Shown here piece by piece: positions 32,231 through 59,045 of a DNA stretch of 64,000 nt; position 1 is the stretch's first letter, and each line of letters opens with the position of its first letter. The notes under the pieces were generated by a model, which saw only the letters and a program-made list of their open reading frames with translations, had not been told where the DNA came from and made no database searches. The DNA is from an uncultured bacterium. GTDB taxonomy: Bacteria; Patescibacteriota; JAHJAL01. Location: assembly GCA_938004065.1 (NCBI GenBank), contig CALKWM010000038.1, positions 66,466 to 130,465 on the forward strand, in the 5' to 3' direction. The translations under genes were made by a program, and so were the position numbers.

Positions 32231-32255
32231 ATTATTTTTAAAATGTATTTATAAA

Positions 32256-32306: not shown

Positions 32307-32389
32307 GGATGACAACACTATTATTTATTATTTATTGTTTATTTTTTGTGCTCTTTCTAGTAATTAGTCATTGGTAATTCGTAATTATA

Positions 32390-41300: not shown

Positions 41301-44300
41301 GCAATAATGTCACTTGCCGGATTAATGTTATTAATTTTATTGACCCGGAAATCGTCAAAGAAAGTGTCGACATCATCACCGGTATTGGCGTAACTGGAAA
41401 GACCGGTAAACTGAGTCGTCATGGTCAAATCATATTCACTGCCGCTGCCGAAACTGGTCCAGTCGGTATGATTGTGTTTTTTGTAATAAAAACGGAATGT
41501 ATTATCATATTTTCTGATTTTCAAATCAAAGTCATTGTCAGTAAAATTAGCGTCATTACTGGTAACACTGCCGGCATCTTCAACTTTGAAATTAACTTTC
41601 TGCCCTGACCAGTATTTGCGCATGCCCTGCACGTGGTTGCTGTCATCTTCGTACACTATCAAACCACCCTGCTGATCATCTTCACCGAGTGAGGCCTGTA
41701 TGCGGACAGTAAGTTCATAATTTTGTCCCGTCATATCAGTATCGGCCAGCAGAACCGGGGCGGAATTGTCCGCCTCCCACATATTGCTATCTTCCAGGGC
41801 CTCGATCCACAGCCAGCCATCTTGTTTACCCCCCTCGCTCCAACTGCCGGCAACTTCCCGGGTCCAACCCCATTGATCGGTGTTCAAAACTCCATCTTCG
41901 AAGTCATCATAGATATCAAAAGTGGCTTGCCCATTAGTTTCACTCACTGCTGTCGGATTGCCATAATACATAGTAAATGAAGAAGTACCATTGTCGGGAA
42001 TTTTTATCCAGACAACAGAAGTACCGCCGACCGCCCAGCGTTCAATCCAATAGTTTAGTTTGTTACCGTTGTCATCAAAGAATCGGATATCGGAACCATC
42101 TTCATTAACATTGGCATAATCGATATCACCGGAATCCATTTCCAGTTTAACTTGATAATTGTCGGCGGGGGTATTTGACGAAAGGGTGACGGTGCGTTTG
42201 TACATCCAGTTGGTTTCGCTTTCCAGGGTGGCCGCACTTTCAGTACCGGAATATTTTTTAACAAACAAATTATCGATTTCGAACGGTTTAGAGTAATTGG
42301 TTATACCGATTTTTAGTGGTGTTTCTGAAGAATAAGTTGAATCATAAGATTTTTCCCAGCTAATGCCGCCATCACTACTCTTCTGATAAATTGCACCGGA
42401 ATTATTTTTCAGGGGCATGCTTACTTTGTAAGTTGTTCCGTTGGTCCAGGTACCCGCCACACTTGGTGTGCGGTTATTGCCATCTTCATAGACATCAACC
42501 GTCTGGGAATTGAGGTCATAATAAGCGTAAATCAAATCACTTTGATCTGTGCCGGTACCGCCGTCGTGCCAGCCAAACATGATGTGGCCGGTACTTGAGG
42601 TTGGTTTATAGTCAAGTCTTAATTCATATTTGTCGCTACGATTGAAGGTGCCAATGCTGGTCAGGCCATTGCTTCCCCAGGCACCCGAACCGCCGGTGGC
42701 GATCAATTTATCATTCTGGGAAAGATAAGACCCATTGTCAAATACCGACCATTTATCGGTGTCTATAGTCGTACCGGTAAAGTCATCAAAAAACGGAAAA
42801 GTAAGTTCTCCATAACTTTCTGATGATACATTGCTATTGCCATAATACATGAAGATTTTTTCTGTGCCGGCGTCGGGTATATTGACCCAGATACTGGACC
42901 GGTTGGACCAGGTAGCGCTATTCCAATATTCTATCCAGTAGTTTAATTTATTGAAATTGGAGTCATAGAAACGGATGTCCTCACCACTTCCTTGGGCGTT
43001 GGAGTAGGGGAATGAGGAATCGAGCTGTACCTGAACCTGATAATTATCGGTGGGAGTGGCCGGTGCTAAACTGATCCCCCGTTTATAATCCCAGCTTTCC
43101 TCTCCGGACAGGTTGGCGTTATTGACCGGCTGATAATTTTTGGCCAATGCAATCTGATCAAAATAGACCGGCAGATCGGCGCTGGTATCGGACCAGCTCG
43201 CCACGCCAGTGCGTTCAGCCGCGAACGATTTGTAACTAACATTAGTCAATTGCGTCCAACTGGTCGAGTTATGGTCCTTAAAAAAGAAATAATATCCACC
43301 CTGTTGTTTCACTATTGCTAAATCAACGACGGTCGGTATGGCATTATTTTCATATGTAATATTCGAATTATTATCGGTTTCATCAATAATAACCATCGCC
43401 GCCGCCGCACCGCTTTCATTATAAGCCGGGCCGAAGAAGAGGTAATTATCGTCGTCTTGATAAATCATCAGGCCCGTTTTCGTTTTGGGATAAGAAGCCG
43501 ATGGTTTAGAGAGATCCGATTCAAACTGGATAGTTGTTGATAACTCATAATCAATTCCCATATAATCCGCCTGGCCGATAATCATCGGCGCACTGGCCGC
43601 GTCGCCGCTCATATTCTTGCCATTTTGCGCTTTCAACTTCATCCAGCCGGATTTATCTACTCCTTCGTTCCAGGAAGTATTATCCACCCGGATTTTTGAC
43701 CATTTGTTTTGATCAAACTGGCCGTCGGTAAAATTATCATACAGGGAAATTGTGTTGTCGCCATCTTCAGTTGTGAAAGACTGACCGTCGCCATATTGCA
43801 TGTAAAAAGCGGCCGTTCCCTGATTTGGGATTCTAACATAAATAGTTGAATTGCCCCCATAGTTCCAGTCGAAAAAGAAATAATCCAGACTGTTGCCCAA
43901 CAGGTCATAAAATCTGATATCGCCGCCATCACTTTGGACTTTAGAGTAATCGAAATTGGCGCCGGTCAATTCTACTTTGGCCTGATAATTGGCTTCCTGG
44001 GTGGGGCTATCAAAAATTAAAGTTTGCTGGTAGAGACTGGCCGGTGAGCCGGTTTGCTGACTGCCCAGAGAAATGACGGAATTACCCTCGCTAAAGGCCC
44101 GTCTTTCATAGTTGGCCAGCACTTCGGCGGCTGTCAAGGCCCGATTGTAAATTTTTGTCTCATCAATACTACCGGTGAAATAATTATTATTGGTATTATA
44201 ATCACGCCGACCAACCGTGAAGGGAATATCGAAACTATTGTGCCCCGAGGTTGAGTCGGTGCCAACCAACTGTCCATCGACGTATAATTTTTTCACTCCC

Positions 44301-47300
44301 GCTTCGTAAGTTCCAACGACATGATGCCAGGTATTTAGAGATAAAGTGGTGGGCGCATCAAGATATTCACTGGGGTTGCTGGTCCAGAATGTCGGTCGAT
44401 CAGTGTAGCTTGAACGACCGGCGGCAATGGACCATTGTCCGCTACCGCTTGACCCCCGGCTGATTATTCCATTCATATTGGCGTGACTGGCTGTCGGGTA
44501 AAACCAGGATTCAGCCGTAAAGGTCGCATTGGCAGTCATATTATAGTTGGCGGTGGTGGCATAATCATTTCCATCAAAGACGACATTGTCGCCGCTGGAA
44601 AATTTTACATCACTGCGCTCCGCCCACTGACCACCATCCAAAGTAGGTGAAGACCAGGCCGGATCATTGGCACTGGCGGCAAAGTTCAGATTACGAGAAT
44701 TACCCGAGTTGTCAGTGATAGTTGTGCCGCTACCATCATCCATGTGCCACTGAGCAATCAAACCGTTATTATCAGTTTCTTTAGTAAAAGTTTTATCGAA
44801 ATTTGTTTCCGCGGTCGCACCGGAATTACCATAATACATATATACTTTGCTGGTGCCGGCTTCCGGAATTTTTAGCCAAATCTCGGAGGTGCTGAGTGGA
44901 TCATAATTCTCAATCCAATAATTAATGTCGTTGCCATTTTGATCGGCGAAACGCAGGTCGGACCCGTCGCCGTTGGCTTTCAAGTATTCAAAATTGGATT
45001 GATTGAGAGTTAATTTAAGTTGCAGATTGTCCACGCCAGTTGATGGATTTATTGTCAGTGACTTGGTATAAATCCAGCCATCCAACGCCCCCGGATTGAT
45101 CCAGGCGCCGATAGTGAATTGATTGGTATTGTTCAGGCTTTCTTCATGCGGCACTATCACATAATCATTCTGCCCATCAAACGACAAAGCCGAACCATAT
45201 TTTCCATTTTCCGACCAGGCCGGCAAATTGGAGTCGGTTTCGTTATTGGCGATGGAGACGGTTGGCAATATTACGGTGTAATTTCTCCGTTCGTATATGT
45301 TCCTTATCTGTTCTGCCGAAAGTGTTTCACTGACAATTCTAACCTCATCAATTGAACCGGAGGTGTATTGTCCATTGTAGCCCCGCATGAAGTAGTTTAT
45401 TCTGTAGGGATAGGAGTCGTTGGAATTAGACGAAGATCCATACGCTTCCAGTCGTCCATCGATATATAGATAACCTGTTTGGGAGGAATCCTGAGTAAAG
45501 GCAATATGATGCCAGTTACCATCAGCCACCAGAGTGGTTGATTTTAGATTATGTTGCCAGGCGGAATTATAATGTATAAATTCGACATAGCCGCTACGCA
45601 GTACGAAATTGGCGTAAATATCACTACTATCGCGGCCCAACAAGACTTTTCCGTATTCACCATTTTGAGCGGTATCTGTCCCTTTGTACCACATAGATAG
45701 GGAGAAGTTTGACGTGTCCGAATATGATATCGCTGACGCCAGTGAAACATGATCATTGACACCATCAAAAGTCAGATAATCACCGGAAGAAAAATTGGTA
45801 CTACCGTCATCACCAAATCGTCCGCCATCCGAGCCGTTCCAGGTCGGACCGTTTTGCAGAGTGCCGGTATTGGCGTAACTCGAACTATCAGAAATAGTGG
45901 TTGAAGGATTGCCTTCGTCCATGTGCCATAGACCTCGTATATTGCTTGAATCCAAGTCATAGTCTTTAGTAAACACATTATCAAAACTGTCAGCGGAGCT
46001 GGCGCCGGAATTACCATAATATATATAGAATGTTTTAATCGTTTTTGCTTCAATCGTGGGCAGTTGCACCCAAAATTTGGTTTGATTGGGAGTGGAGTTG
46101 GCGCTGTCATAAAAATAATCTACCGGCGTGGTCATGTCCGATTCGGTAAAGCGGACGTCATCAAAATCTGTCTGCATTTGTGCCGGTACGAGTGAAGTGG
46201 TATCTATCAAAACGGGCAACTGATAATTCGTTAAATCATAAGGATTCTGGGAATTATCGACATATAAAGGGGAACGATAATTCCAGTTCGTGTCATACCA
46301 GACCGGTTGCGCGACATATTGTTCGGAAATTAATTTTAGACCGCCCACGGCAGCTACCGGTTCGGAGGCGGAATATTTTCGCACAAATAGATCATCGATC
46401 TCAAATGATTTGCTATGATTGGTCAATCCGATTTTCACCGGAGTTTCAGACGAATAACTGCTGTTGTAACTGGTTTCGAAATTTAAACCGTCATCCACAC
46501 TTTTTTGATAAGTGTTACCACCGGCTGATTTCAACTGCATTTTCACCCGATAATTCGTGCCGTTGTTCCACCGGCCCGCCAGGGTCGGGGTGCGATCAAC
46601 CCCGTCCTCATAGACATCAACCGTTTGCGAACTCAAGTCATAGTAAGCATAAATCAAATCGGTATAACTATTGCCGGTCCCGCTGTCGTGCCAGCCAAAC
46701 ATCATGTGATCATTGATTTCGGTCGGTTTATAGCGGAAATTCAGTTCCAGATCGGCACGGGTGAAGGTTTGTGTGCCCCGGAGTCCGTTACTGCCCCAGG
46801 CACCCGAACCGCCGGTGGCAATCAGTTTATCATTTTGTGACAAATAGTTGCCGTTATCAAATTCCACCCATTTGCTGGTATCAATGGTGGTGCCGGAAAA
46901 ATCGTCAAAAAATTCAAATACATTTTCGCCATCGGAAACATTTTCGGCAGTTGAATTGCCATATTTCATCGTCAAAACACTGGTACCGCTGTCAGGTACT
47001 TTGATCCAAACCAGCGAATCACCGGTGTCATCCCAGTTTTCAATCCAGTAGGATAATTCATTATTATTAGTGTCATAAAAACGTAGATCTCCCCCATCAT
47101 CTTGGGAGTTCTGGTAATCAAAATTTTCCGGATTTAATGTCAGCATCACCTGGTAATCATCAACCGGAGTGACGGGGCTCAGATCAATTTCGCGAGTGTA
47201 TAACCAGGTGCCACTTTGGCCGCCGGCCAGATAGCCGGCGTTGTTGGTACCGGAAGAATCGGCTACAATCGATCCCGTACTTTCGTCAAAATGCCACAAC

Positions 47301-50300
47301 CCGCTAACGCGGTCATCGACTTTATTGACGCCATAACGCCAGTTGGCATCGTGGAAAGGTGAAAAAGCGACTAATCGCCCCTGAGAGATTTGTAGTTTGG
47401 CTCCGCTTGATTCACCGTATTCATTCAATGCTCGCAGTTCGGTTATACTTCGAAAACGATTGGCGCTTAGTTGTCGAACTATATTGCCGGCACGTAATTT
47501 TATTTTTTCGGTTAAACTCTTGCCATCTAAGTCGGTACCGGATATTTGTAAAACTCCCGGGGTAATTATTTGTAGATCATCGAGTGCCAATTGTGAGTAT
47601 TCCGCAAATCCAATGGATTGGTCAAATGATATAATCGAGCCGGATCGGACTGTATAATCTTGGGAATAGTGATGGTAAATTTCATCGTTAGACAAAATTC
47701 GGTTATGAATTGCCAATTCGTCGATTTCACCGGTAAAGCCATTGCCTATGACAAGATCGTTATCATCAGCGGAAATTTCTCCCAGAAAATAGTATTCTTG
47801 TTGAATTACACCATCGACATATAATCTCAGATATTTGCCGTTATAGCTGCCAGTCAGATGATGCCAGTTATTGTCATTAATAATGCCGGCGGTTGATCCA
47901 GTACAGCTTTCCGCACTGCCGGCGGTATTTTGCCATTGATTATGGTCGTATATATAAAAGAACGGTCGGCCATCGGGACAGATCTCCAATTTATACTCAT
48001 TGTCTTTGGTTAAAATCGGCCCGGAAGAATCGGTCTTGATCCAGCTTTCGACGGTGATGTTGTCTGCAGGGGACAGAGAATAATGTTGACCAAGGTTGAT
48101 GTTGTCGGTTGTATTAAAAGAACGACTACGCCCTACCCGGCCGTTGTCCACCAGGGTGGTGCCGGTAATAACGCCGTGATTGGCCTGACCGGAATAATCA
48201 TTGCTATCTTCCATGTCCCACCAGCCGATCAATTTTGACTTGGCGTTTTCATACAAATTGAGGATTTCGTTTTGGGTTAGAACTGTAGAATACATTTTTA
48301 GTTCGTCGATTTGACCGTCAAAATGCGTGGCGCTGGTGAAAGCGGTAGAGCCAATTTTCAGATTGGCGGTACCGTTGGCCATAGAGCCGGTGGCACTTTC
48401 ATCTGCATACAATATACTGTTTACATATATTTTAAAGTTTGAATCGGCTTCATCACGATTAACAATAATATGAGACCATTGTTGCGGTTTAATCAGACCT
48501 TTAGGACTGGTTATTTGGTACAGTTGAGTGGCATTCAAAGCGGTGGCGGTAAATTCTACCGCACCTTCGGTTGAAATCTCGAGATTGTATTCCCAGTTGG
48601 AGGCGGTACCTTTACTCAATACCGGTTGGCGATTGTCCAGATTGTCAGGATTGACCCAAACCGAGAAACTGAAATCATCGGCAAAAGTAAATTTATCATC
48701 ATCGGGTATAATCACTTCTTCGTCATCGCCGAAAAATTCGAGTGCGCTACCGACCAGGCCGTCAATATAAGCCGGATCACCATTTAAACTGCCGGCAACG
48801 GCGTTGGTGGTAGTATCGTCTTCGACGCTGGTGGTCAAGTCATTTTCATCAAATGTATAGAGCGCTTCCAGATTGGCGGGATTGACCAGGCCAATCGAAT
48901 TATTCAAAGACAAGGTGTTTTTCAGTTCTTTATTGTAAGAATAGTTTGAGGTTGGTTCGGTGGTAGTGTCATAGAGTTTCACATCGGTAATTTCGTTGGA
49001 AAGCAATTGCCCATTAGCGGTGTTGATACCGTCAGTGGCGGTGAAAATATACGTAGTGGGGTCGATGTCAATCGGATACTCCAAATTGGCGACATTGACT
49101 ACCAATGCCAGATATAAATATTCCTGTGTTGAGTATTCCGGTGTGACATCAAGTAAAGGATATTGATCTTCCAAACCAATTTGTTCGATTGGATTAATTG
49201 TTTGGTCAAATTCCGGGGTGTTGGAAACCGGTTGGGCATCAGTGTCCAAATCAATTTCTTGAGCTTCGCTAACGCCAAGAGTATGAAATACGTTTTTGAC
49301 AACATATTTGAGTGCGTTGATGATCATATCGTAAAATGATTGATGGTCGCCGGTGTCCAAAGTTTGAACGGTGGCCGAAAGGTCAGATTCGTATTGCTGA
49401 TTTTCGGTTTGATCCGATTCTTTAACATCAATGCTTGATTCGTTTTCATCGATATTGTCTGCCGGTAGTGATTGATCAATTTCCATATCTTCTGTTTGGC
49501 TTAGGTTAAATCTGGATGAATCGATTTCCAGACCGGATCGGTATTCTTGTTCCGTCAATAGCTGTAAATATGCATTGGTGGAAATTTCTCCCTTGTTGTC
49601 AATCAAAAATGGCGCGGTAACCGAAGCGACCGTTGCCCCACTTTGATTTTGGTAGTGGATTTGATTATCAGACAAAACCGGTGTAACGTTTTCCAAATCC
49701 AATTGGTAGTAAAATATCCAGTTATTTTCACCATGATAACCACTGGCCAATTTGTCTATTTGCCTGGTGGTGTCTGATTTCAATATTAGATCTTCCTTGA
49801 TTCCTTGGCTGAGTGAGGTGTAAACCACATCCACATTGTCCCACTGGTTTTGATAAACCAATTTGTTTTCATCAGCTGAGGCGTTGGCAGTGTTGGCGGA
49901 AACAGGTTGATATTTGATTGAATAATCGATTTTTCGGGCAACTTGATTTTGATCTTCGACGGAGTTAAATTTTAGTTCCAATGGTTCATCTGATTTTTTG
50001 GGAATCGATAATTTATGCGGAGTTTGTTGAGACAGATAACTACCGTTTTCAAAGATCAATTTCGGGTCGATAATTTCCTCGGTTTGAGTTTCCGGATTGA
50101 TATATGTTTCAATCAATTGAGCTTTTTTCAAAGATTCGAGAGTATCATTACTGGCGGTATTTAAGCTGTTAACCAATTCGTTTTTTTCAAATTTACTGTC
50201 AATGTCTTTTAAATCTTTGTAAACCAATTCTTGTGAAGCGTTACCGATATTGTCGATAACTTTTGTTTTTTCTTCATCACTCAGTTTTGAAGTGGCCATG

Positions 50301-50551
50301 AAAACATCCGGATTTTCTTGCATGTTGGCGATTTTTTCCACCAATTCGTCGGCATGACTGCGGTCGATATCGGTGTATTGCACGAGATTGCCCCATTCGC
50401 TTTTTTGGGTTATGGGAGTGCTATTTACCGTTTCAATTTCCAAAGCAAATGCGGAAAATGATTGCAGGATCAACATAGTGGCCATCATGACAAAGATAGC
50501 TGTTTTAAAAGCTTTTTTGATAGTTTTGGTTTTGATTTTGTTTTTGATCAT
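32390..50551 (-). CDS. giant secreted multi-domain surface protein (6053 aa): LamG, DUF2341-like, Reg_prop-like and GH-like beta-propellers, WxL-like C-terminal module
   Basis: 18.2-kb ORF. Signal peptide (FVMMATMLILQSFSAFA|LE). An acidic/Q-rich N-region ends in LEYPIDIDPT. Multiple LamG signatures and at least 4 DUF2341-like modules. Two near-identical ~300-aa supra-repeats (...TIDT.KW..FDNG.YLSQNDKLIATGGSGAWGSNGL...FEID.LFV.KYS). A Reg_prop/Y_Y_Y-like propeller region (IYVGTDNGLSEIDL...). A 5-blade GH-like propeller (VLKDGDVYKMWYTG..G...YRIGYAISNDGINWQK x5). An Asp-box module (LISPNGTEEW...DYSTNGGVSYT). The C-terminus ends GDYDSTVSIVVIPRY*. Confidence 0.9.
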   Translation of the reverse strand: MIKNKIKTKTIKKAFKTAIFVMMATMLILQSFSAFALEIETVNSTPITQKSEWGNLVQYTDIDRSHADELVEKIANMQENPDVFMATSKLSDEEKTKVIDNIGNASQELVYKDLKDIDSKFEKNELVNSLNTASNDTLESLKKAQLIETYINPETQTEEIIDPKLIFENGSYLSQQTPHKLSIPKKSDEPLELKFNSVEDQNQVARKIDYSIKYQPVSANTANASADENKLVYQNQWDNVDVVYTSLSQGIKEDLILKSDTTRQIDKLASGYHGENNWIFYYQLDLENVTPVLSDNQIHYQNQSGATVASVTAPFLIDNKGEISTNAYLQLLTEQEYRSGLEIDSSRFNLSQTEDMEIDQSLPADNIDENESSIDVKESDQTENQQYESDLSATVQTLDTGDHQSFYDMIINALKYVVKNVFHTLGVSEAQEIDLDTDAQPVSNTPEFDQTINPIEQIGLEDQYPLLDVTPEYSTQEYLYLALVVNVANLEYPIDIDPTTYIFTATDGINTANGQLLSNEITDVKLYDTTTEPTSNYSYNKELKNTLSLNNSIGLVNPANLEALYTFDENDLTTSVEDDTTTNAVAGSLNGDPAYIDGLVGSALEFFGDDEEVIIPDDDKFTFADDFSFSVWVNPDNLDNRQPVLSKGTASNWEYNLEISTEGAVEFTATALNATQLYQITSPKGLIKPQQWSHIIVNRDEADSNFKIYVNSILYADESATGSMANGTANLKIGSTAFTSATHFDGQIDELKMYSTVLTQNEILNLYENAKSKLIGWWDMEDSNDYSGQANHGVITGTTLVDNGRVGRSRSFNTTDNINLGQHYSLSPADNITVESWIKTDSSGPILTKDNEYKLEICPDGRPFFYIYDHNQWQNTAGSAESCTGSTAGIINDNNWHHLTGSYNGKYLRLYVDGVIQQEYYFLGEISADDNDLVIGNGFTGEIDELAIHNRILSNDEIYHHYSQDYTVRSGSIISFDQSIGFAEYSQLALDDLQIITPGVLQISGTDLDGKSLTEKIKLRAGNIVRQLSANRFRSITELRALNEYGESSGAKLQISQGRLVAFSPFHDANWRYGVNKVDDRVSGLWHFDESTGSIVADSSGTNNAGYLAGGQSGTWLYTREIDLSPVTPVDDYQVMLTLNPENFDYQNSQDDGGDLRFYDTNNNELSYWIENWDDTGDSLVWIKVPDSGTSVLTMKYGNSTAENVSDGENVFEFFDDFSGTTIDTSKWVEFDNGNYLSQNDKLIATGGSGAWGSNGLRGTQTFTRADLELNFRYKPTEINDHMMFGWHDSGTGNSYTDLIYAYYDLSSQTVDVYEDGVDRTPTLAGRWNNGTNYRVKMQLKSAGGNTYQKSVDDGLNFETSYNSSYSSETPVKIGLTNHSKSFEIDDLFVRKYSASEPVAAVGGLKLISEQYVAQPVWYDTNWNYRSPLYVDNSQNPYDLTNYQLPVLIDTTSLVPAQMQTDFDDVRFTESDMTTPVDYFYDSANSTPNQTKFWVQLPTIEAKTIKTFYIYYGNSGASSADSFDNVFTKDYDLDSSNIRGLWHMDEGNPSTTISDSSSYANTGTLQNGPTWNGSDGGRFGDDGSTNFSSGDYLTFDGVNDHVSLASAISYSDTSNFSLSMWYKGTDTAQNGEYGKVLLGRDSSDIYANFVLRSGYVEFIHYNSAWQHNLKSTTLVADGNWHHIAFTQDSSQTGYLYIDGRLEAYGSSSNSNDSYPYRINYFMRGYNGQYTSGSIDEVRIVSETLSAEQIRNIYERRNYTVILPTVSIANNETDSNLPAWSENGKYGSALSFDGQNDYVIVPHEESLNNTNQFTIGAWINPGALDGWIYTKSLTINPSTGVDNLQLKLTLNQSNFEYLKANGDGSDLRFADQNGNDINYWIENYDPLSTSEIWLKIPEAGTSKVYMYYGNSGATAETNFDKTFTKETDNNGLIAQWHMDDGSGTTITDNSGNSRNLNFAASANDPAWSSPTLDGGQWAERSDVKFSSGDNVVFDGNDYATTANYNMTANATFTAESWFYPTASHANMNGIISRGSSGSGQWSIAAGRSSYTDRPTFWTSNPSEYLDAPTTLSLNTWHHVVGTYEAGVKKLYVDGQLVGTDSTSGHNSFDIPFTVGRRDYNTNNNYFTGSIDETKIYNRALTAAEVLANYERRAFSEGNSVISLGSQQTGSPASLYQQTLIFDSPTQEANYQAKVELTGANFDYSKVQSDGGDIRFYDLLGNSLDYFFFDWNYGGNSTIYVRIPNQGTAAFYMQYGDGQSFTTEDGDNTISLYDNFTDGQFDQNKWSKIRVDNTSWNEGVDKSGWMKLKAQNGKNMSGDAASAPMIIGQADYMGIDYELSTTIQFESDLSKPSASYPKTKTGLMIYQDDDNYLFFGPAYNESGAAAAMVIIDETDNNSNITYENNAIPTVVDLAIVKQQGGYYFFFKDHNSTSWTQLTNVSYKSFAAERTGVASWSDTSADLPVYFDQIALAKNYQPVNNANLSGEESWDYKRGISLAPATPTDNYQVQVQLDSSFPYSNAQGSGEDIRFYDSNFNKLNYWIEYWNSATWSNRSSIWVNIPDAGTEKIFMYYGNSNVSSESYGELTFPFFDDFTGTTIDTDKWSVFDNGSYLSQNDKLIATGGSGAWGSNGLTSIGTFNRSDKYELRLDYKPTSSTGHIMFGWHDGGTGTDQSDLIYAYYDLNSQTVDVYEDGNNRTPSVAGTWTNGTTYKVSMPLKNNSGAIYQKSSDGGISWEKSYDSTYSSETPLKIGITNYSKPFEIDNLFVKKYSGTESAATLESETNWMYKRTVTLSSNTPADNYQVKLEMDSGDIDYANVNEDGSDIRFFDDNGNKLNYWIERWAVGGTSVVWIKIPDNGTSSFTMYYGNPTAVSETNGQATFDIYDDFEDGVLNTDQWGWTREVAGSWSEGGKQDGWLWIEALEDSNMWEADNSAPVLLADTDMTGQNYELTVRIQASLGEDDQQGGLIVYEDDSNHVQGMRKYWSGQKVNFKVEDAGSVTSNDANFTDNDFDLKIRKYDNTFRFYYKKHNHTDWTSFGSGSEYDLTMTTQFTGLSSYANTGDDVDTFFDDFRVNKINNINPASDIIASLAAEQAKEVDLDETTNIIKKGTAYSIGATDDYFYSTLGSQTISSKLDEGWSHVVQTYDGTSQKIFINGELREEKTYDGSLSINSEDLIIGEKFYGTVDDVLLAGKAFSAEEIKTIYESDNPYTKVQPVEEQNEINNNNIVTDNLVGYWPLNEGTGTATEDASTNNNTGTLTNGPVWSSGINDFGLNFDDSNDYVSVGNVSPLSFEYNQPFTLSAWIKTSNTTTDDIIVSKMENSGNYRGYSLSALNSTTGKLNLVIRNVINSTYISSIGSTKVNDGQWHHVVATYDGSGTYDGTMLYVDGQAETMTKSSDSLGGATIVNTQAFTIGSRASGGVPFAGRIDEVRVYNSELTSGQIGALAHQYDYSFSGDEIASSSAGIEISGDQSSNSDQLAIKIDAGGPTGEATYKVSNSNGIGWSASTYVTSAEKSNLYFDGSDTGVDITFKYSAKFVSGEIYKIASWYTEERSNMRGIRRSFPEVAAIIATDNTTDPDQKSIEIIDTLDNSLWMRFTNTNTDDFLGGDNTLITSVDMLNGQLYAGNSDSSGFGILKVDYIDDSARYFGSEAGSDLIFGNIAYRNQSNEFGQDDKITLNDLSVNDLDAELLAGRITLTAGVSGPNGGVNVIDEYNNTVIYGTSGGDGIDKLKLSTNGHIYMANGTDNNVINIDNIITYKQNFNIANYNELYEDSAIATYQIPTEPINDILVNESESIADEFSSNKIFTATDNGLGIIDTLTSGLSDDSSHDNQNGFTKEITAKYITESMNGPLNLVGMWIAGDQTGVASVSDRGIHSHDMSIHGFGATLSDSDWSQGVRGKSLYFDGSANYLSVADHSDFNFTDSNNLSFGAWVKPSRATTSETVFGQTGLTAATTSFALSTTSNAGKIIYEATVGKGSGLYTTASEEYDLTDTWHYLAGVHDAQNNILKIYIDGEPEADITTPANLDINNPTNNLTIGGSSGGTNLFQGNVQGAFLTKTKLTDNQIKRLYNIGLGALSDNDDDLNRLGGTSDQSQCLALDKNNNTIYVGTDNGLSEIDLDRDVRTNYWTTATTPSLPSNDVSDIDFSGYQALVATNAGARIIKTDGSFSGNSSIGQLQSGKGRDVYTDGAYNYYVSNAGLDIIDIVNNTRHAFVLREDGFNSVAALDGLVFMGTDDDGIYAGNITTMSGESTITQPTFHASSTQPLLSNEIFDLYARRINGINYLVAGTGDGVVLLADYDTSNNYQVYFKNNDGDDITKVWLNEAGDLAYYNATDQRVRVFDDAIDPNLYPFQGSTYSYDRQYSVSTTPNYIGSEVNDLIYVANTSTAESGRDTFYIATNNGVSVIQEHSTPTSGTVKHYVNQKLHDERTGVLIPFDQSYTPENPDTNSYFNTVNNYDPTRAKYNFLSDPDLAGYWDFDQTLPAQIADRSGKNNHGGFGPNTGTSGGKTGNALYLDGNRSYLVVNDNASLHPTSAFSWSGWVWKDEAISNDNAGEPILASKFDGGNNGEFVLYFNKNNKLQLKVSDGSSAVTSGESSAIGTESWHHVAATFDSGNVNFYIDGQLDSTFTVAVTNLQLPPYNNQPASMTDLYLGNDWSVFNSPFGGYIDEVAYYTRALTPEEIQSHASLTDFSNSVTVNNQDSLAYRTSANLTTESGATETFYLNFDETLSGNQGETFTTAIESELQRPNLNMISYGGNTNNNVILNVGTSGSWDDVDVYAPFVLKDGDVYKMWYTGVAGTNDYRIGYAISNDGINWQKYSGNLCSGSGATGNGCIFEHNSSGFDSVYVYQPTVIKENNIYKMWYGGYDGSGLEIGYATSSNGVNWIRQNSGNPVITIGSAGSWDDWGVTYPHVAKEGSVYKMWYSGEQSAYNFRVGYAMSTDGVNWTKYDDANTADCGFSEANDNGCMIDIGSSGSFYQNDIETPKVIKLNNLYYLYFYGQDGSGVFRAGLMTSVNGIDWQIGNEGNPVFNLNTAGQWDDAHIFGLVPIFEKNNIKHYYSAHDGANSRIGLTTLDFEAGRYGKSLRIENNDIYQYDVTNDINRSQGTISTWVKLDNTTDALHEIYNLQSSSGNYQDGLFLSAKSGQITAGLNGDIKLVATNTLTNNYWNHFVLTWGKPSANNENLKLYLNGQLIQTGIYDAVIGQIYNQLQIGGNKAESRDYLKGNIDELRIYNQALNADEITELYNGSLGNSSKINTISKVSEGTIEFDYTPNWNSNVDDEHRVLFDAMAGDPSRVDEQYNQSKTAVNRLRIWKEEGSTLGDNDRLHFGILDNDGDLYEVYTNETIDWTSDTTYRITAQWDLDNNDLTAGGANKIRIMVNDSLVAGDNFTSGVTANKKKNGTDTGIAEEITMSNIGEKFWIGSGAPNPLVNMIDNPSFELNNGSDPADWTKTGTITYDTSQTNSKYGTDAVSITGPDTTNKLQQTIKGLIPGTWTLSWWAKGSASDSTQDMDVQISAGSLTGTTGNNTDPGTTYKYHYITFANDTYGDLTLSLSANSGETVWYDGITLAKGRMDENMQNSSGSFSDFQISTNLKTEAELNAIYLAESYDSINQNATLAGETNNTTSLGVKKVNTSPTASDEIIFVGTKGYTSEGALTQITFGSPDERTDEWRQDSSGGSLTSNRVNSISYSIIRNNLAVATDDAGIFGFYDDVPASISLISPNGTEEWEGGSAQTISWNTDFGICEHIQLDYSTNGGVSYTEIINNLDDTGSYTWDPVASLNSANTTIKVNCMDPFDNELATDVSDANFIIDSTSPEFTIYNIPNPSGDNMVFVRGSGTDTGGATSITEVQYKVDNSDWSNANINSGLGTTSVEFDFSTTALDAGQHTIYVKGKDSSLPGGNELDLSTAAQRTFNVDALSISFDKTLFPINLSVNGDMSMTDSVNVTVTGYGTDYSLAIKADKPPTNRYYPSENIPFYIGNDSWSDSTVGFGWKNTNFNSGNYNDFETGAYEIFKNSFASLIGDTTTVDFKTVIDWTVPAGDYDSTVSIVVIPRY

Positions 50552-52076: not shown

Positions 52077-52271
52077 GGTAGGTAAAGATTAAAAAAATAA
52101 TAAATTATAAATCCTAACGAACTGTAAATAAGATTGTGAAACTTTACAACTAATTACAAATTACTAACAACTAATTTATGAATAAAAGGGAAAAAGCGGG
52201 ATTGCAAACTATGATAATAATTACTTTTATATTATGAGAGTATTTTTGCCTGTTTTTAGTATTAATTTCAA

Positions 52272-53525
52272 TTATCTATGTGTATTATTTTGCATCAACC
52301 ATTTCCAGATAGGTTTTACATAAATTGTTTGGCGATTAATTTTTATCACATCATCATCATATCTGGTCAAAATCAGACCGGTTTTCAATTTGTAAGTATT
52401 CATAGCATCCAACAGTCCATTTATTTCTCTAGATTCATTTTTGCCATCAATTTTCTGTGTTACTTGAATTGCGGCAGTGATTGTATTTTTCTCTTTTATC
52501 ACAAAATCGCATTCATGTTTGTCTGAATGATAATATATTTCTTTGTTTCTTCTTTTTAATTCCAGAAATGTAATATTTTCCAATAATCGTCCGATGTTTT
52601 TGGAGAACGAAAAAGAAACCGCATTGATTAAACCGGTATCGATGCTGTAGATTTTTTTATTGTTGATAATTTGTTTTTTGACCGAATAATCATATTTACT
52701 TATTAGAAAATACAGATACGAACTTTCCAAGAATTCAAAATAGTTTTTAACAGTCGAAACACTTTGAAACTTCAAGATCTTGGCCAAGTTATTATAACTT
52801 ATCAAAGTCGAAGGATTGGATAAAATATACAAAGATAATTCGCGGAATGATTGGACATCCTTGATCTGATAACGGACAATAATATCTTTGATAAGTATAT
52901 CTTGATAAAGTTGTTTCAATTCATCACTATCACGACTTTGCACAACTTCCGGGAAACCTCCCAATAGTAAATACCGGTCAAATAACTTGTTTATTTGTGA
53001 TTTTTCTTTGGTGGTATAGATCTTTTTATTTTGAAAATCATGGTATTGCAAATACTCCAGCCAGCTAAATGGATATAATTCGATTTTTTGATGGCGACCG
53101 GTTAGCGATGTTGACAATTCAGAGGACAATAATTTCGCGCTACTGCCGGTTACAAAAACTTTATAACCATCACCATACAAACGACTGACAAATTTTTCCC
53201 ATCCGACAATGTTTTGGATTTCATCAAAGAAAAAAACAGAGTGATGATCATAAAGTGTAAAAAATATTTCCAAAAGGTTGTTAAAATCTTCAACTTGAAA
53301 ATCCAACAATCTTTCATCTTCAAAATTCAAATAGTAATATCCCGGGTAACGGTTTTTCAATTGCTTCAATAAGGTTGATTTACCGCATCGCCTGACACCA
53401 ACAATAGCGGTGATTTTGGAACTTTTGATAATTTTTTCAGAAACTTTTCTCTCGATAAACTGGTGTTTCTTTTCAAAACCGGATTTTTGGTCCACTACTA
53501 TTTCCTTGAGTTGGTTTTTATCCAT
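52272..53525 (-). CDS. AAA+ ATPase of the AAA_14/DUF4143 family
   Basis: 417 aa. Walker A IVGVRRCGKSTLL and Walker B/DE VFFFDEIQ. The C-terminal DUF4143-like region is typical of the COG1373 ATPase family. Confidence 0.8.
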   Translation of the reverse strand: MDKNQLKEIVVDQKSGFEKKHQFIERKVSEKIIKSSKITAIVGVRRCGKSTLLKQLKNRYPGYYYLNFEDERLLDFQVEDFNNLLEIFFTLYDHHSVFFFDEIQNIVGWEKFVSRLYGDGYKVFVTGSSAKLLSSELSTSLTGRHQKIELYPFSWLEYLQYHDFQNKKIYTTKEKSQINKLFDRYLLLGGFPEVVQSRDSDELKQLYQDILIKDIIVRYQIKDVQSFRELSLYILSNPSTLISYNNLAKILKFQSVSTVKNYFEFLESSYLYFLISKYDYSVKKQIINNKKIYSIDTGLINAVSFSFSKNIGRLLENITFLELKRRNKEIYYHSDKHECDFVIKEKNTITAAIQVTQKIDGKNESREINGLLDAMNTYKLKTGLILTRYDDDVIKINRQTIYVKPIWKWLMQNNTHR

Positions 53526-53779
53526 TTAGAATGTATATTAATAATATTATTTATACATTACTATTGTATATTATTTGATACTACTTGGCAAGAGTAGTCT
53601 TAGACTACAAGTTTTTTATACCAGACATGATCACCATAGTAACGAGATTGATTCAAATCATTCCCTGTGTAATTTTGGTTTCGGGTCGCTTTGCCCGTCA
53701 TCGATTGGCCAGTGTTCATAGGTTTCGAGCTGGTGAGGTGGTTGGTTTTCCAATGATGGGGGCATGGAATTTGAAAAAT

Positions 53780-54829
53780 TTAAAAATAATTATTGACCGC
53801 GAATTCAAATTGTTTGATGAACAGCTCCTTGAAATATCTTGCGCTATTTTGTTCATAAAACAAAATCATCGCTTTCTTGTATTCGACTTCATCAATTGTC
53901 CTAAGCGACATCGGACATAAGTCATTGGCCAGCATCATGGCATTACCTATCAACCTAGATGTTCTCTTGTTGCCATCTTCAAATGGTTGAGTATAGGCAA
54001 TAAATAAAATGGATAAGAATGCTTGCGAAAATGGATCTGATATTCGATTAATTTTTTTAATCATTCTAATGAGTGTTTCTTTGATCTGATACATGTTACT
54101 TAGCGGTTGATAATTGGTGCCGACGATTCTCACCAATTTTTGGCGCAAACCGGATTTGACATTTAGTTCTTTGGTCAGTAACTTGTGAATGTGTTCGATT
54201 AAGTTAAGTTTTAATTTTTTGAATTTTATCCGATTGGCTATAATGTATTCCAAAGCGTTTTTGTGATTGAGTATCATAATCGCCTCTTCCCTGGTGTGTC
54301 CGGTGGCTTCTTTTTTTTCTTTGATGAGAATTTCGGTATCGATTAATGTATATGTATTGCCCTCAATCCGGGATGATTTCCAACTTAGTTCAATCAACCA
54401 ACGCTCCAGTTCTTTTTGGTAAGCGGTCTTAGTCATGTTCTTTATCTTGCGTTGATAAACTTGGTTTAGTTTGGTTAAATGATATAATTCGTCTTTGCTA
54501 AAAACATTATCTATCCAATCCAAAACAGCAAAGTTAAAATGAATGACCTGATCCGACCTTTCGTCCTGTTCCTGAGAAAAGTAATCTTCTACCGGATAAT
54601 ACTTGAGCAAGGGATTGATTAATTTTTCAACATAAACCAGACTGCGGCCGGAACCTTGTTTCTGGATTAAATTATTTTGCAGCAATACTTCAATATCGCG
54701 GACAATGGTAACACGGGAAATCTCGCCAAATCTGGCTGCAATTTTAGGTTTTATCTCGCGATTGGATATATGACCGGATTGACGGATGAGATTCAAAATA
54801 TATATTTGTCTTTTAGTCAATTTGGTCAT
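53780..54829 (-). CDS. Fic/DOC family protein with N-terminal winged-HTH; Fic motif degenerate (QPFEDGNKRTSR)
   Basis: 349 aa. The N-terminal RQIYILNLIRQSGHISNREI...RVTIVRDIEVLL region is HTH-like. The C-terminal core has ...LSILFIAYTQPFEDGNKRTSRLIGNAMMLAN in place of the canonical H.F.[DE]GNGR..R. Confidence 0.8.
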   Translation of the reverse strand: MTKLTKRQIYILNLIRQSGHISNREIKPKIAARFGEISRVTIVRDIEVLLQNNLIQKQGSGRSLVYVEKLINPLLKYYPVEDYFSQEQDERSDQVIHFNFAVLDWIDNVFSKDELYHLTKLNQVYQRKIKNMTKTAYQKELERWLIELSWKSSRIEGNTYTLIDTEILIKEKKEATGHTREEAIMILNHKNALEYIIANRIKFKKLKLNLIEHIHKLLTKELNVKSGLRQKLVRIVGTNYQPLSNMYQIKETLIRMIKKINRISDPFSQAFLSILFIAYTQPFEDGNKRTSRLIGNAMMLANDLCPMSLRTIDEVEYKKAMILFYEQNSARYFKELFIKQFEFAVNNYF

Positions 54830-54965
54830 TTTTTTATTGTTTCATGATATTATTCTAATTGTATCATTTTGTAACAATTAGTAAATACCCCTGAAGTAAA
54901 AAGATTAGGAGCAATCCATCTTAATTTCTGTCAATTTTACTACAGATAGGAGAAAAGTTAAAGGG

Positions 54966-55086
54966 AAAGGGAAAAAGAATAAAGAAAGCTTAAAGACCCC
55001 CGCCCAAGGCGGGTCTCCTCCAAAGGCGGACAAGCGCCTCGGGCGGAAAAGATTAAGATTTTGATACTCTCACCGCGGAACGGGAA
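54966..55086. repeat. 115-bp direct repeat, copy 1 (identical to 57732..57846); GC-rich hairpin plus T-rich tail in minus-strand orientation
   Basis: 54972..55086 is base-for-base identical to 57732..57846, with 5 more flanking bases at 1 mismatch. Contains GACCCCCGCCcaaGGCGGGTC and AGGCGGacaaGCGCCtcgGGCGG hairpins. Overlaps the last 11 codons and stop of 55053..55775. Confidence 0.85.
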
Positions 55087-55775
55087 CCAAAGTCGCCAAT
55101 CTGAAGGACGGGATCGTTCCTGCTCAAGTCGGCTCGCCGACCGCTCTGGTACCAGTAGGCATAGCCGACATTGCCGGACGCGGGAAACCAGGTGGCGAGC
55201 AAGTAACAACCTTTGCCGTGACCTTGGTAATCATCGATCACTTGATTGGTTTTGGTGAGGTGAGTGACAAAGCGAACAAGCCAGTCTTCGTGGGTGAGGC
55301 CGGATTCGTGTTGGTAAGGAGAATCGGGTAATTTGTCTTTGAAAGTTTGGAGATATTTATTTGGTTTTTGATTGGCAGTGAGTTGGGGACGATCACCGAT
55401 GGTTTGGCCTTGGCCTTTGGCCGGAATATTGATGTTGTCTTCGAAGAGCTTGAGTTCCCAACCCAGGCAGGGGTCGTTGGTTTGGATTTGTTGTTTGATA
55501 ATATCAGCTTTGGTTTGGCCGCCATGTTTTTGAGTCTCGGTTTCATCCTCTGTTTTGATGAATGCCTGGGGATAGTAAAAGATGGCATTGGGGTCGTAGT
55601 AGCCTGATTTATCATCTGCTCCCCAGACCCAGAGGGGTTGGGAAGTGTCAAGTGTGAGGGGGACGAGTGCTTCCGCGGGATCGGCGGGATCTTTTTTGGC
55701 GGTAAAGAGTTTTTTAGCTTCATGATGTTTCAAAATTTGTGTTTTGGCAATTTCAGCCAGATTGGGAATAGACAT
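55053..55775 (-). CDS. hypothetical protein; C-terminal 240-aa segment of a probably disrupted gene
   Basis: ORF as called in the track. Protein-like translation continues in-frame upstream of the ATG at 55775 without an obvious start codon. The last ~11 codons and the stop are supplied by the 115-bp repeat. Confidence 0.55.
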   Translation of the reverse strand: MSIPNLAEIAKTQILKHHEAKKLFTAKKDPADPAEALVPLTLDTSQPLWVWGADDKSGYYDPNAIFYYPQAFIKTEDETETQKHGGQTKADIIKQQIQTNDPCLGWELKLFEDNINIPAKGQGQTIGDRPQLTANQKPNKYLQTFKDKLPDSPYQHESGLTHEDWLVRFVTHLTKTNQVIDDYQGHGKGCYLLATWFPASGNVGYAYWYQSGRRADLSRNDPVLQIGDFGSRSAVRVSKS

Positions 55776-56270
55776 GGCGAAGGGAGTTAGTTGGAGGCGG
55801 GTGAAGCCCTGAGAAGTTTTGTAGTTGATCTTTTCTTTGTTTTCTTTGAGTCGTTGTTTGACAGCTTCAAAGGTGGGAAAGGGATATTCCCGAGGTTGAT
55901 CGGGATGATCAGGATCAAGGCCATTGATACCGAGTTGGCCGGTGCTTAATTTCTTTAGTATCCCGATTTTAGTGAAGATCTCTTTTTGTGATTCGTATTG
56001 TTCCTTGACCGAGGCGAGGGAGAGATGTTCAAAGGGCCAGAGATGATTCTCTAATTATACAGTTTCTCGCTCCAGTTTGGTTTTGACTTTCCAGGCGGAT
56101 TGCAAGAGAGGACGAACCGAGGGGTCGCTTAGGTCGGGTGAGAGGGTTTTAGCTTTATCGAGCAGATCGCACATGAGTTTTTGCGACTCTTTGATACGAT
56201 CCAGGTCGCGGGTGAGTGTTTCGCATGATGGTTTGGTGGTTGATGGGGGTTGTTTTAAATTTGAGGGCAT
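55053..56270 (-). pseudogene. possible disrupted gene: 71-aa ORF (56055..56270), an in-frame TAA, then ~93 start-less codons and the 240-aa ORF
   Basis: Track coordinates place ATG 56270 and ATG 55775 in the same frame (495 nt apart), with the stop at 56055..56057 between them. My manual translation of 55776..56054 gives continuous protein-like sequence (...LGINGLDPDHPDQPREYPFPTFEAVKQRLKENKEKINYKTSQGFTRLQLTPFA|MSIPNL). A +/-1 uncertainty remains in my hand count of this stretch, so frameshift versus nonsense cannot be decided here. Confidence 0.35.
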
Positions 56271-56344
56271 AGGTAGTTATTATTAGCTTTTGAGTAATAC
56301 CAGAGGATGAATATAACTATATTAAGAAATCACAAAAGAGCAAC

Positions 56345-57478
56345 TTATTGAACATCCAAAAACTTTAAATAGTTTTTCGTATTGATTATTTGAATTTTTG
56401 CTTCCGGATACGTAACCTGGAATTCTCGGGAAAATTTCTTTTTATCTGGTGAATATTTGAATTCGTATGCATACAGATTGCCGTTTCTTTCCTCTATCCA
56501 GTCAACTTCTTGTTGGTCCCATGTACGCCAGAAATAGTTATTGCTAATTATTTGGGAATATTTTTGACATTTAATACGTTCGGTTACTAGAAAATTTTCC
56601 CATAGTTGACCTATATCGTTTCTAATTTCCAGAGGGTTGAAATTGGCAATTATTGCATTTCGAATTCCATTATCATAAAAATAATATTTGCTCTTTTTAG
56701 TAATCTCTTTGCGAAGGTTTTTTGAATACCCTCTCAGATTGTAAATAATAAATGACTTTTCCAAAAGATCCAGATATCGTTTGACTGTTTTATAATCCAG
56801 TCCTACTTGCCCACCCAATTCGGTCAGCGAAACTTCGTTACCAACTTGATATGCAATCAGACGAAGTAAATCAAGAAGTAATTTGGGTGACCTGACTTTG
56901 TCAAGTTCCAAGATATCTTTGAACAAGTAGGAGTTAGTGATTTCCTCCAGAGTACTGACTTTCTCACTATTGTCAGGCGCTGTGATGACAGCGGGATAAC
57001 TACCAAAGACAAGTATTTCATTGAGTTTTTGTTTTAGTTCAAAATGATTGTACAATCCAGCTAGCTCCATCTGGGAAACCGGATACATGATGAGGGTTTT
57101 TTTACGCCCGGTTAGTGGCTCTCCTACTTGTCCGGCCAATTCAAATGACGATGAGCCGGTGGCGATAATTTTGATATCGGGAATATTGTCCACCAATATC
57201 TTGAGACCAATGCCGATAGCGGGTATTCTTTGGGCTTCATCAATAACTATTAGATCGTATCCGGAGGCATATTCTTTGATTTTGGTAAAATCTTCGGAGT
57301 TAAGCACTTGTCTGGTAGAGATATTGTCACCAGAATCAAATTTGTGTTTTAAGTCTGTTTGAGAGAGAAAATCTTGCAACAGGGTTGTCTTGCCAACCTG
57401 CCTGGAGCCATATATGACTAAAACCTTGTTGGGAACAAGATAAGTGCTTAAGTCTTGGTATTTTCTTGGTATTTTCAT
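56345..57478 (-). CDS. AAA+ ATPase of the AAA_14/DUF4143 family (second, divergent copy)
   Basis: 377 aa. Walker A IYGSRQVGKTTLL and Walker B LIVIDEAQ. The C-terminal DUF4143-like region is present. Divergent paralog of 52272..53525. Confidence 0.8.
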   Translation of the reverse strand: MKIPRKYQDLSTYLVPNKVLVIYGSRQVGKTTLLQDFLSQTDLKHKFDSGDNISTRQVLNSEDFTKIKEYASGYDLIVIDEAQRIPAIGIGLKILVDNIPDIKIIATGSSSFELAGQVGEPLTGRKKTLIMYPVSQMELAGLYNHFELKQKLNEILVFGSYPAVITAPDNSEKVSTLEEITNSYLFKDILELDKVRSPKLLLDLLRLIAYQVGNEVSLTELGGQVGLDYKTVKRYLDLLEKSFIIYNLRGYSKNLRKEITKKSKYYFYDNGIRNAIIANFNPLEIRNDIGQLWENFLVTERIKCQKYSQIISNNYFWRTWDQQEVDWIEERNGNLYAYEFKYSPDKKKFSREFQVTYPEAKIQIINTKNYLKFLDVQ

Positions 57479-57725
57479 GTTTTTATTATACTATATCATC
57501 CTCATTATTGTCAAATTTCGAGGAGTTTCACTACTACTAATATTGGTATTCTAATCATATGAACTATTCTATATTTACATTATGAGGCAGATTACTATTC
57601 ACCACATTCAGATATTTTTAATGTTTTCTGTAAATAATCTAAAAGAACTAAACCACGAAAAGTTCAAGGGAACCCGCTTACGTTCTAAAAAAACAAACTA
57701 CGGCAGGACAAGAAAGAAGAAAACC

Positions 57726-57846
57726 AAAGGAAAAAAGAATAAAGAAAGCTTAAAGACCCCCGCCCAAGGCGGGTCTCCTCCAAAGGCGGACAAGCGCCTC
57801 GGGCGGAAAAGATTAAGATTTTGATACTCTCACCGCGGAACGGGAA
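57726..57846. repeat. 115-bp direct repeat, copy 2 (downstream of the pgi/pmi stop)
   Basis: Identical to copy 1. Located 66-186 nt past the stop of 57912..59045 on the transcribed strand. Confidence 0.85.
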
Positions 57847-57911
57847 TTTGAACTATTGGTTATAGTTTGGAGATTTGAGTTTTGATTTTTTAGTTATTGA
57901 ACACCTGGATA

Positions 57912-59045
57912 TCAAGAATTGATAATTGTCTCCACCCATTCCCCCGTCTTGAGCATTCCCTTTAGCTCTTCGATAGCGGTAAATGGCACCGGGTCATGGC
58001 CCAGCAAGAAAGCCAGATAGACGCTGACGTAATCACCTAAAATCACGCCTTTGCAGATACCGCCGGTATAATTGTCATTATCGATTTCGTAGATACTGAT
58101 ATCAAATCCTTGTTTTGAAAATGTTTCCCGGATAATATCGGATCGTTTAAAATTGCGGGGATGATATAAATTGCTTTTGAGGATTAGGATATTGATCGTT
58201 TTTTTTAATTCCGTCGAGCATTCCAAACCTTGTTGAGCGTTATGGTTAAGCTCGGGGATTTCTTCGAAATATGAAGGAATTTTGGTATTTTCGTTGAATT
58301 CCCCTTTCCACCGCCTGGCAACCACAGATAAATGTTCGGCGCCAAATACGACGGGGATGGAGTTGACTAAACCGGAGGCGATGTGCTTGGCAAGATTATT
58401 GTCATGATTTAATTCTTCATGGTATAGATTAACGGCCTGATTCATAACATCGATAGCTTCGAGCAGATTAATATCAGATGAATTTAAAACTCCTTGTTTG
58501 ATCAACAATTCCAAAACTACAAAGAACGAGTGTCCCCAGGCGGTACGAGGGGGCATATTGGGTGGCAAAATAAAATATTGATCGTTATTTTCTTTGGCCA
58601 ATTCAATCAACTTGCCACCGGAGCCGAGACAAAATATTTGCGCTCCTTTGGTGCGAGCTTGAACGTAACCGGAAAGGGTTTCTTCGGTATTGCCGGAATA
58701 GCTAATGACGATGGCGAGAGTTTTTTCGTCCACCCAGTTGGGTAGATTGTAATCGCGGACGATTTGAATTGGTAGTTGTGAGTATTTTTCAATTAAGAAT
58801 TTGGCCATGTCAGCACCGATGGCCGATCCGCCCATGGCACAAACGATTATTTTGTCGAAATTCATTGATTGTGATTCTTGGGCTGTGAATTGTTCCCAAA
58901 CTTTTTGGATTTGATTGGGGGTATCTTTGAGAATTGGCAAATACCCCGATGGATCAGCTTTTTTAATCTCTTCGATGTTGTTTAGGTCGAGCATAGGTCT
59001 AAAAAATTTAATAATAAATAAATTGATTGTTTTTATTGCTTGCAC
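57912..59045 (-). CDS. bifunctional phosphoglucose/phosphomannose isomerase (SIS-domain, archaeal-type PGI/PMI)
   Basis: 377 aa. SIS-domain signatures IIVCAMGGSAIGAD and LAIVISYSGNTEET. The C-terminal half is typical of the bifunctional PGI/PMI family. The true start may be the internal Met (MLDLNNIEE). Confidence 0.75.
   Translation of the reverse strand: MQAIKTINLFIIKFFRPMLDLNNIEEIKKADPSGYLPILKDTPNQIQKVWEQFTAQESQSMNFDKIIVCAMGGSAIGADMAKFLIEKYSQLPIQIVRDYNLPNWVDEKTLAIVISYSGNTEETLSGYVQARTKGAQIFCLGSGGKLIELAKENNDQYFILPPNMPPRTAWGHSFFVVLELLIKQGVLNSSDINLLEAIDVMNQAVNLYHEELNHDNNLAKHIASGLVNSIPVVFGAEHLSVVARRWKGEFNENTKIPSYFEEIPELNHNAQQGLECSTELKKTINILILKSNLYHPRNFKRSDIIRETFSKQGFDISIYEIDNDNYTGGICKGVILGDYVSVYLAFLLGHDPVPFTAIEELKGMLKTGEWVETIINS

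Follow-up and report, generated by a model that had tools for sequence, protein, structure and literature searches.

The stretch of DNA analysed here, referred to as the window, is 64,000 nucleotides long and comes from an uncultured member of the Patescibacteria. Most of the window is filled by four giant minus-strand ORFs (1077..50551; 3514, 2577, 3739 and 6053 amino acids) that carry Laminin_G_3, DUF2341 and Toxin_R_bind_N domains. An accessory island of ~5.8 kb (52077..57911) is situated between the enolase gene (eno) and pgi. The pgi gene encodes a bifunctional phosphoglucose/phosphomannose isomerase and is intact (57912..59045, minus strand). Read from pgi, the island is composed of copy 2 of a 115-bp repeat, an ATPase gene (ATPase2), a gene referred to here as T, copy 1 of the repeat, a Fic gene, a small ORF (sORF) and a second ATPase gene (ATPase1).

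ATPase2 (56345..57478, minus strand) lies between the repeat copies and belongs to the AAA_14/DUF4143 type, a PADLOC candidate of class PDC-S01. A perfect TTGACA-18-TATAAT promoter-like site is found just upstream of it, also between the copies (57514..57485, minus strand). ATPase1 is located at 52272..53525 and the Fic gene at 53780..54829. Both ATPases match PDC-S01 (E = 1e-149 and 1e-112), the Fic protein weakly matches SoFic in PADLOC, and the island looks like a small defence island. The sORF (53660..53767, minus strand) is a GC-rich frame of 35 codons, MPPSLENQPPHQLETYEHWPIDDGQSDPKPKLHRE, that follows the Fic gene.

In three related genomes (L039, L040 and L041), whose pgi is 63-67% identical to that of the window, pgi is followed directly by enolase and then by a giant 6055-aa gene. 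By this comparison the pgi-eno interval of the window is an insertion, with copy 2 as its presumptive pgi-side edge. The earlier note on this DNA had proposed a search of relatives for an empty site with a single copy of the repeat. The adjacency of pgi and eno is indeed found, but a single-copy site is not visible, since the relatives are too distant (pgi 63-73% identical). For annotation, the pgi-eno interval in this lineage of Patescibacteria can be regarded as a hot spot for accessory and defence genes.

The two copies of the repeat lie at 54972..55086 (copy 1) and 57732..57846 (copy 2), both on the minus strand, and are identical at 115 of 115 positions with a start-to-start distance of 2760 bp. 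Direct comparison thus confirms the perfect identity that the earlier note had reported for two sites 2760 bp apart, and the 2.76-kb segment that the copies bracket does lie in a region that is inserted relative to related genomes. The start given for copy 1 in that note, 54966, was 6 nt too far left; positions 54966-54971 are just partly similar, and the true start is 54972. A 54-nt core of the repeat occurs exactly twice in the window, compared to an expectation of 0 from 100 shuffles. The proposed search for further copies was run over the window and 10 kb on each side (~84 kb in total), where no third copy of the 115-mer, full or partial, and no dispersed family is seen. A 29-mer from the repeat has 0 matches in 185,579 species genomes. 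The 21-nt hairpin of the repeat has a single match in the JGI metagenomes, on a high-GC actinobacterial contig, and this match was judged to be due to chance. An Rfam scan of 52000-60000 (E <= 1) gave no match, and a tRNA/tmRNA scan of the whole window, which would reveal an att site in an RNA gene, found none.

Read on the transcribed (minus) strand, the unit encodes S R S A V R V S K S and a stop codon in TTCCCGTTCCGCGGTGAGAGTATCAAAATCTTAA; GC-rich inverted repeats come next, and TTTAAGCTTTCTTTATTCTTTTT after them. The coding share of the unit is its first 34 nt, which end in SRSAVRVSKS and the stop codon. In copy 1, the 20 nt at the start of the unit (55086..55067) are TTCCCGTTCCGCGGTGAGAG, the TAA stop codon is at 55055..55053, the GC-rich inverted repeat spans 55049..54996 and includes a hairpin at 55018..54994, and a T-rich tail extends over 54994..54972. 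Both copies are 3' of minus-strand genes, copy 1 of T and copy 2 of pgi, and copy 1 provides the last 10 codons and the stop of an ORF at 55053..55775, so that the repeat encodes the C-terminus of one gene; these points of the earlier note hold. Copy 2 is an orphan. Starting 65 nt past the end of pgi, it carries the 34 coding nucleotides out of context, without a gene. No VR-like or gene-like sequence is present upstream of it, and the 65 nt themselves have no convincing similarity to T or its variable repeat (VR).

The repeat is GC-rich and forms a hairpin, as had been described. The stem-loop GAGACCCGCC-TTG-GGCGGGGGTCT is present, and the whole 115 nt on the transcribed strand are predicted to fold into an imperfect hairpin of ~100 nt (-48 kcal/mol, z = -4.5, with 0 of 200 shuffles as good). 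The unit resembles a rho-independent terminator in that a GC-rich stem-loop lies 3' of genes on the coding strand and is followed by a T-rich stretch. Unlike such a terminator, its T tract is interrupted (TTTAAGCTTTCTTTATTCTTTTT, with T at 4 of the first 8 positions), and the unit adds 34 coding nucleotides and an extra outer stem of ~35 nt. Because the T tract is interrupted, a scan for consensus terminators makes no call at the site. The proposal of a plausible intrinsic terminator is a possible reading for which the stem-loop is in place, but the terminator would not be a canonical one. The T-rich tail may also terminate transcription, and the hairpin may be simply a terminator. Most plausibly, copy 2 today would do no more than form a predicted hairpin that separates pgi from ATPase2, at most as a terminator or insulator, and copy 1 may close gene T with the same predicted structure.

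The gene that ends in copy 1 is larger than its annotation indicates. The ORF at 55053..55775 (240 aa) and a second ORF at 56055..56270 (71 aa) are in one frame and are parted by a single TAA at 56055..56057. Homologues of 320-407 aa span both ORFs, and in the two closest a Lys codon (AAA) stands opposite the TAA. On these grounds, T is taken as a gene of 405 codons (55053..56270, minus strand) with an in-frame nonsense codon. T is probably a recent pseudogene that arose by nonsense mutation. The ORF 55053..55775, treated as a gene of its own in the earlier note, proves to be the distal part of this interrupted frame. Public assemblies annotate T with the same split into 71-aa and 240-aa ORFs, so the 240-aa "hypothetical protein" is better annotated as the tail of an interrupted 405-codon homologue of targets of diversity-generating retroelements (DGRs), which rewrite genes for hypervariable proteins; the basis for this is given below.

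The homologues of T are all hypothetical proteins, and the relatives drawn from the genome collection are nearly all Patescibacteria MAGs. Identity between T and members of the family is 39-72%. All 32 homologues of 320-407 aa end in G-x-RSAVRV, preceded by a hypervariable block of ~35 residues that keeps a W/R/A/L/P scaffold. The AF2 model of the distal 333 aa of T has a pLDDT of 93.6. A Foldseek search with this model found no significant match in the PDB or BFVD that would confirm the C-type lectin (or Ig) fold expected of a DGR variable domain. When the C-terminal fragment of T was modelled alone, confidence was low and the model was too poor for a structure search. The T sequence has no match in Pfam or the PDB, where the sequence search returned noise. 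A foreign origin of T on the basis of its GC content was considered and rejected, as T is 47.9% GC compared to a window mean of 42.9% and 44-47% for the giant ORFs. The AT-rich genes of the region are the ATPases and Fic, not T.

The SRSAVRV C-terminus is conserved across the T family, including in distant genomes that have nothing else of the repeat. This bears on the proposal that a mobile, terminator-bearing element inserted into the 3' end of a gene, which is not upheld: SRSAVRV is the native C-terminus in those genomes. In its broader form, that proposal would have a palindromic element of the MITE, REP or attC-like kind landing both behind pgi and inside the other gene at its 3' end. A long imperfect palindrome does extend across nearly the whole unit, and both copies are 3' of same-strand genes, as such an element might be. 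However, the residues that the unit encodes are native to the family and conserved at its C-terminus, there are just two copies in ~84 kb, the 29-mer is without a match in the species genomes and the 21-mer has only its chance match in the metagenomes. Direct reading reveals no target-site duplication and no GTTRRRY-type cores, and Rfam is empty for the unit. We regard this explanation as highly improbable. An integron attC site is likewise rejected, as the window has no integrase and direct reading reveals no R''/R' cores (RYYYAAC / GTTRRRY). Because SRSAVRV is the native C-terminus of the whole family, the sequence comparison indicates that copying went from the gene to the site after pgi, and that copy 2 is derived from a gene of the T family.

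The function of the T family becomes recognisable in related Patescibacteria. In L003 (GCA_040960315.1), the homologue P0015 is part of a cassette composed of VR1, a template repeat (TR), an RVT_1 reverse transcriptase (RT) gene and VR2. The TR is 113 nt long (5679-5791) and is located upstream of the RVT_1 gene, and the two VRs are at the 3' ends of two paralogous genes. All TR/VR mismatches fall on TR adenines. TR/VRa/VRb triples with A-only mismatches are also present in L014, L030, L032 and L033, with RT ORFs beside each TR. The T family is a bona fide DGR target in these five loci. In all five, the last mutable AAC is eight codons before the final Arg of the S/A-A-V-R motif and is followed by three invariant codons and then by R-S/A-A-V-R. 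TR/VR identity stops at CCGCGGTG(A/G)G. Where two targets are served by one DGR, the region of initiation of mutagenic homing (IMH) and a further 60-75 nt of 3' flank are 100% identical between them.

A 20-nt motif, CCGCCRAGCATYCKRCCRAT, is conserved 3' of the TR in six loci of this DGR clade (L003 5820-5839, L011 7813-7832, L014 14797-14816, L030 4811-4830, L032 6769-6788 and L033 6173-6192). It is probably part of the DGR RNA spacer that is used for priming.

In T, the VR can be placed approximately at 55069..55185 (minus strand), delimited by analogy with the stretch that is covered by the TR in relatives. Read directly, its variable positions are the NNC codons TAC, TAC, AGC, GAC, AGC, AAC, GTC and GAC, as expected if they derive from AAC template codons. 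The repeat starts 5 nt after GAC (Asp), the codon that aligns with the last mutable AAC of the relatives, so that TTTGG immediately precedes TTCCCGTTCCGCGGTGAGAG. Over its first 20 nt the repeat shows homology to the stretch in which the TR and VR of the relatives agree. By its position directly 3' of the last mutable site and its match to the TR/VR-identical ends of relatives, TTCCCGTTCCGCGGTGAGAG is the putative IMH, the term being used for the invariant VR end as in PMC5758913. With its start 5 nt past the counterpart of the last AAC, the 115-bp unit can be read as the invariant VR end, the stop codon and the 3' flank. What was an anonymous perfect repeat could thereby be named as the cis-acting end of a gene targeted by a DGR, a context absent from the earlier note.

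This kind of element is already known. In the mtd gene of phage BPP-1, the IMH and a downstream GC-rich inverted repeat constitute the target-recognition module, which is necessary and transplantable (Guo et al. 2011, PMC3240598). [quoted passage not shown] 2018, PMC5758913). The window shares several properties with the BPP-1-type module. At the C-terminus of the variable protein, the last mutable codon is followed directly by an invariant segment, GC-rich inverted repeats follow a few nucleotides past the stop, a module of this type is common to several targets of one DGR, and the BPP-1 module is portable in experiments. The window differs in having no nearby cognate TR or RT, in a loop that is not the GRNA of phage DGRs, and in an inverted repeat that is much longer, a predicted imperfect hairpin of ~100 nt. 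It also differs in having one copy without any VR, an arrangement that is not described in PMC3240598 or PMC5758913. The orphan copy is the unusual part of the locus.

The DGR cassettes of L003, L014, L030, L032 and L033 provide a closer comparison. Their targets are 39-54% identical to T in the C-terminal part, they end in RSAVRV / CCGCGGTG, and 3' modules are identical between paralogous targets. Unlike the window, these cassettes have a TR, an RT and a full VR on every module copy, and in place of GC-rich hairpins they have AT-rich 3' flanks. Within the T family, conservation does not extend to a GC-rich inverted repeat immediately behind the VR; flanks are AT-rich in most relatives.

The 115-bp unit is, in our view, likely to be the 3'-terminal cis module of a DGR variable-protein gene, with copy 1 as the original and copy 2 as a derivative made at the DNA level. 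The parts of such a module would be the invariant VR end (the IMH by position), the last codons and stop, the GC-rich inverted repeat and the T-rich tail. Copy 1 would be in its native place at the 3' end of T, a reading to which the exact identity with copy 2, the predicted fold and the 20 nt at its start, homologous to the 3' ends of TR and VR in related DGRs, all contribute. Copy 2 would have been made at the DNA level within a decaying cluster of target genes, and that cluster would have been remodelled by the insertion of defence-type genes. Such an event fits the habit of the family, in which targets are paired or in tandem and have identical modules. Copy 2 may be all that is left of a second paralogous target after its body disappeared, or it may stem from T itself, by partial duplication of its 3' end or by recombination. 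Either route requires a breakpoint exactly at the IMH-like boundary. The lost-paralogue version has against it that nothing of a VR or gene body is seen upstream of copy 2, and its deletion would have to end precisely at that boundary. The perfect identity may reflect a recent event or gene conversion. If copy 2 is a deletion remnant and nothing else, it represents ordinary genome decay. Either way, the locus would illustrate that the cis-acting end of a DGR target can persist alone beside a housekeeping gene.

The sequence 3' of the two copies is only weakly similar, with one block of 15/16 matches and a chained score that is reached by 7 of 1000 shuffles. This similarity may be due to promoter-like AT-rich sequence. 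If it is real, the 115-bp identity would be due to gene conversion and not to recency.

The same weak similarity enters the reading of the copies as a recombination scar, which the earlier note had put forward as attL/attR-like boundaries. According to this explanation, a circular or tandem unit of 2.76 kb (repeat, ATPase and T) was integrated or duplicated by Campbell-type or site-specific recombination, leaving attL/attR-like copies from which it could re-excise. As with attL/attR or Campbell-type direct repeats in general, perfect direct repeats flank accessory genes, here a gene pair, beside a housekeeping gene; the pgi-eno interval is an insertion hot spot, and a possible weak residual homology 3' of both copies (15/16; 7/1000 shuffles) would be in keeping with it. 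Several observations count against it. Integrases and recombinases are absent from the window. The island is 5.8 kb long and is not bracketed as a whole, as just the pgi side coincides with a copy and the eno-side edge has none. The repeat is the 3' end of a gene, not a tRNA or att core. The model also presupposes an orphan copy, or a donor with the repeat ahead of the ATPase, and the ATPase and T are unlinked in other genomes. Finally, one boundary falls at the IMH-like start, a DGR landmark that an att model does not predict and leaves unexplained. Of the attL/attR reading, the bracketing of part of an inserted region by direct repeats stands, and we consider a recombination scar unlikely as the origin of copy 2.

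An error of assembly would explain the arrangement without any event in the genome, if the 115-bp repeat had misled the assembler into joining ATPase and T, in truth from another molecule or a strain variant, to the chromosome. The window does come from metagenome assemblies, and related contigs often break beside pgi or inside VRs. Yet the same order is present in at least two differently built, independent public assemblies and in 4-5 contigs, and a repeat of 115 bp is shorter than ordinary reads and inserts and is normally resolved. An artefact is accordingly very unlikely. Among the relatives, contigs of L028-L033 and L036-L038 often start or stop inside a target gene or VR, or just past pgi, which suggests assembly breaks at hypervariable or repeated DGR sequence.

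Neither a TR nor an RT was found near the locus itself. An A-tolerant scan of the window (<=15/50 mismatches) found no TR for the VR of T, and the CCGCCRAGCATYCKRCCRAT motif that lies downstream of the TR in relatives is absent from the window and its flanks. No RVT_1/RT gene is encoded in the window or in the 10 kb on either side. In a search with a profile of the RT of this clade, for which the best 120 of 2598 relatives were considered, none was on the 326,524-bp contig. Because no TR or RT is found nearby, the DGR membership of this locus rests on homology and not on a cognate TR. The DGR system here is probably a relic, or is served in trans from elsewhere in the genome. Since there is no TR or RT within ~84 kb and T has a nonsense codon, the module has probably gone out of use for homing at this locus. 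If the genome held a TR ending in TTCCCGTTCCGCGGTGAG, the module would be the IMH of a live or recent DGR.

These results also bear on the idea that copy 2 is a functional orphan target site or a DGR footprint, in which a trans-acting DGR would still recognise the module and copy 2 would have arisen from a break or priming at the IMH-like boundary. The boundary and the start of the invariant segment are no more than 5 nt apart, for which a random breakpoint in a 1.3-kb gene has a ~1% chance, and the module is known to be portable (PMC3240598). Against this, no TR was found in the window and no RT in the window or the 10 kb on each side, the VR of T is identical in every assembly that carries the gene, T is interrupted by a stop codon, and no TR-derived sequence is present beside copy 2. 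Although attractive, this explanation is given little weight. A related and likewise improbable reading is that the orphan copy is a natural transplant of the DGR targeting module, that is, the IMH-like segment with its cruciform-forming repeat, and that it was born when a break or a priming event hit the site at which DGR cDNA begins to integrate. If so, copy 2 would be a genomic footprint of the 3' integration step and would point to a possible route by which DGR targets are lost or gained. That the repeat has a boundary exactly where the invariant VR end starts offers a modest but tangible clue to where DNA breaks or is exchanged at DGR targets.

Returning to the preferred reading of a decaying target-gene cluster, traces of further family members may be present in the neighbourhood. 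The sORF is weakly similar to the N-termini of the T family, and this weak similarity is suggestive of a decayed 5' remnant of another member. In L036, the closest relative (pgi 73% identical), an ORF begins 107 nt after pgi, and L036 9158..9186 matches the first 29 nt of the sORF at 28 of 29 positions. Genes of the T family may thus have sat after pgi before the island was remodelled.

Two further observations come from the DGR loci of the relatives. In L003, a 30-nt stretch of the VR2 3' flank is found a second time, 100% identical, where the frr gene ends and ahead of the first target gene (4046-4075 vs 11211-11240). This stretch faintly parallels the orphan copy after pgi; it is AT-rich and may be generic. 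The DGR RT gene is split into two ORFs exactly at a (GA)n run encoding "ERERERER" in four of six loci (L003 6120-7135, L030 3454-4478, L032 5474-6500 and L033 4881-5898) and is intact in L011 and L014. The split could reflect slipped-strand phase variation, programmed frameshifting or assembly slippage.
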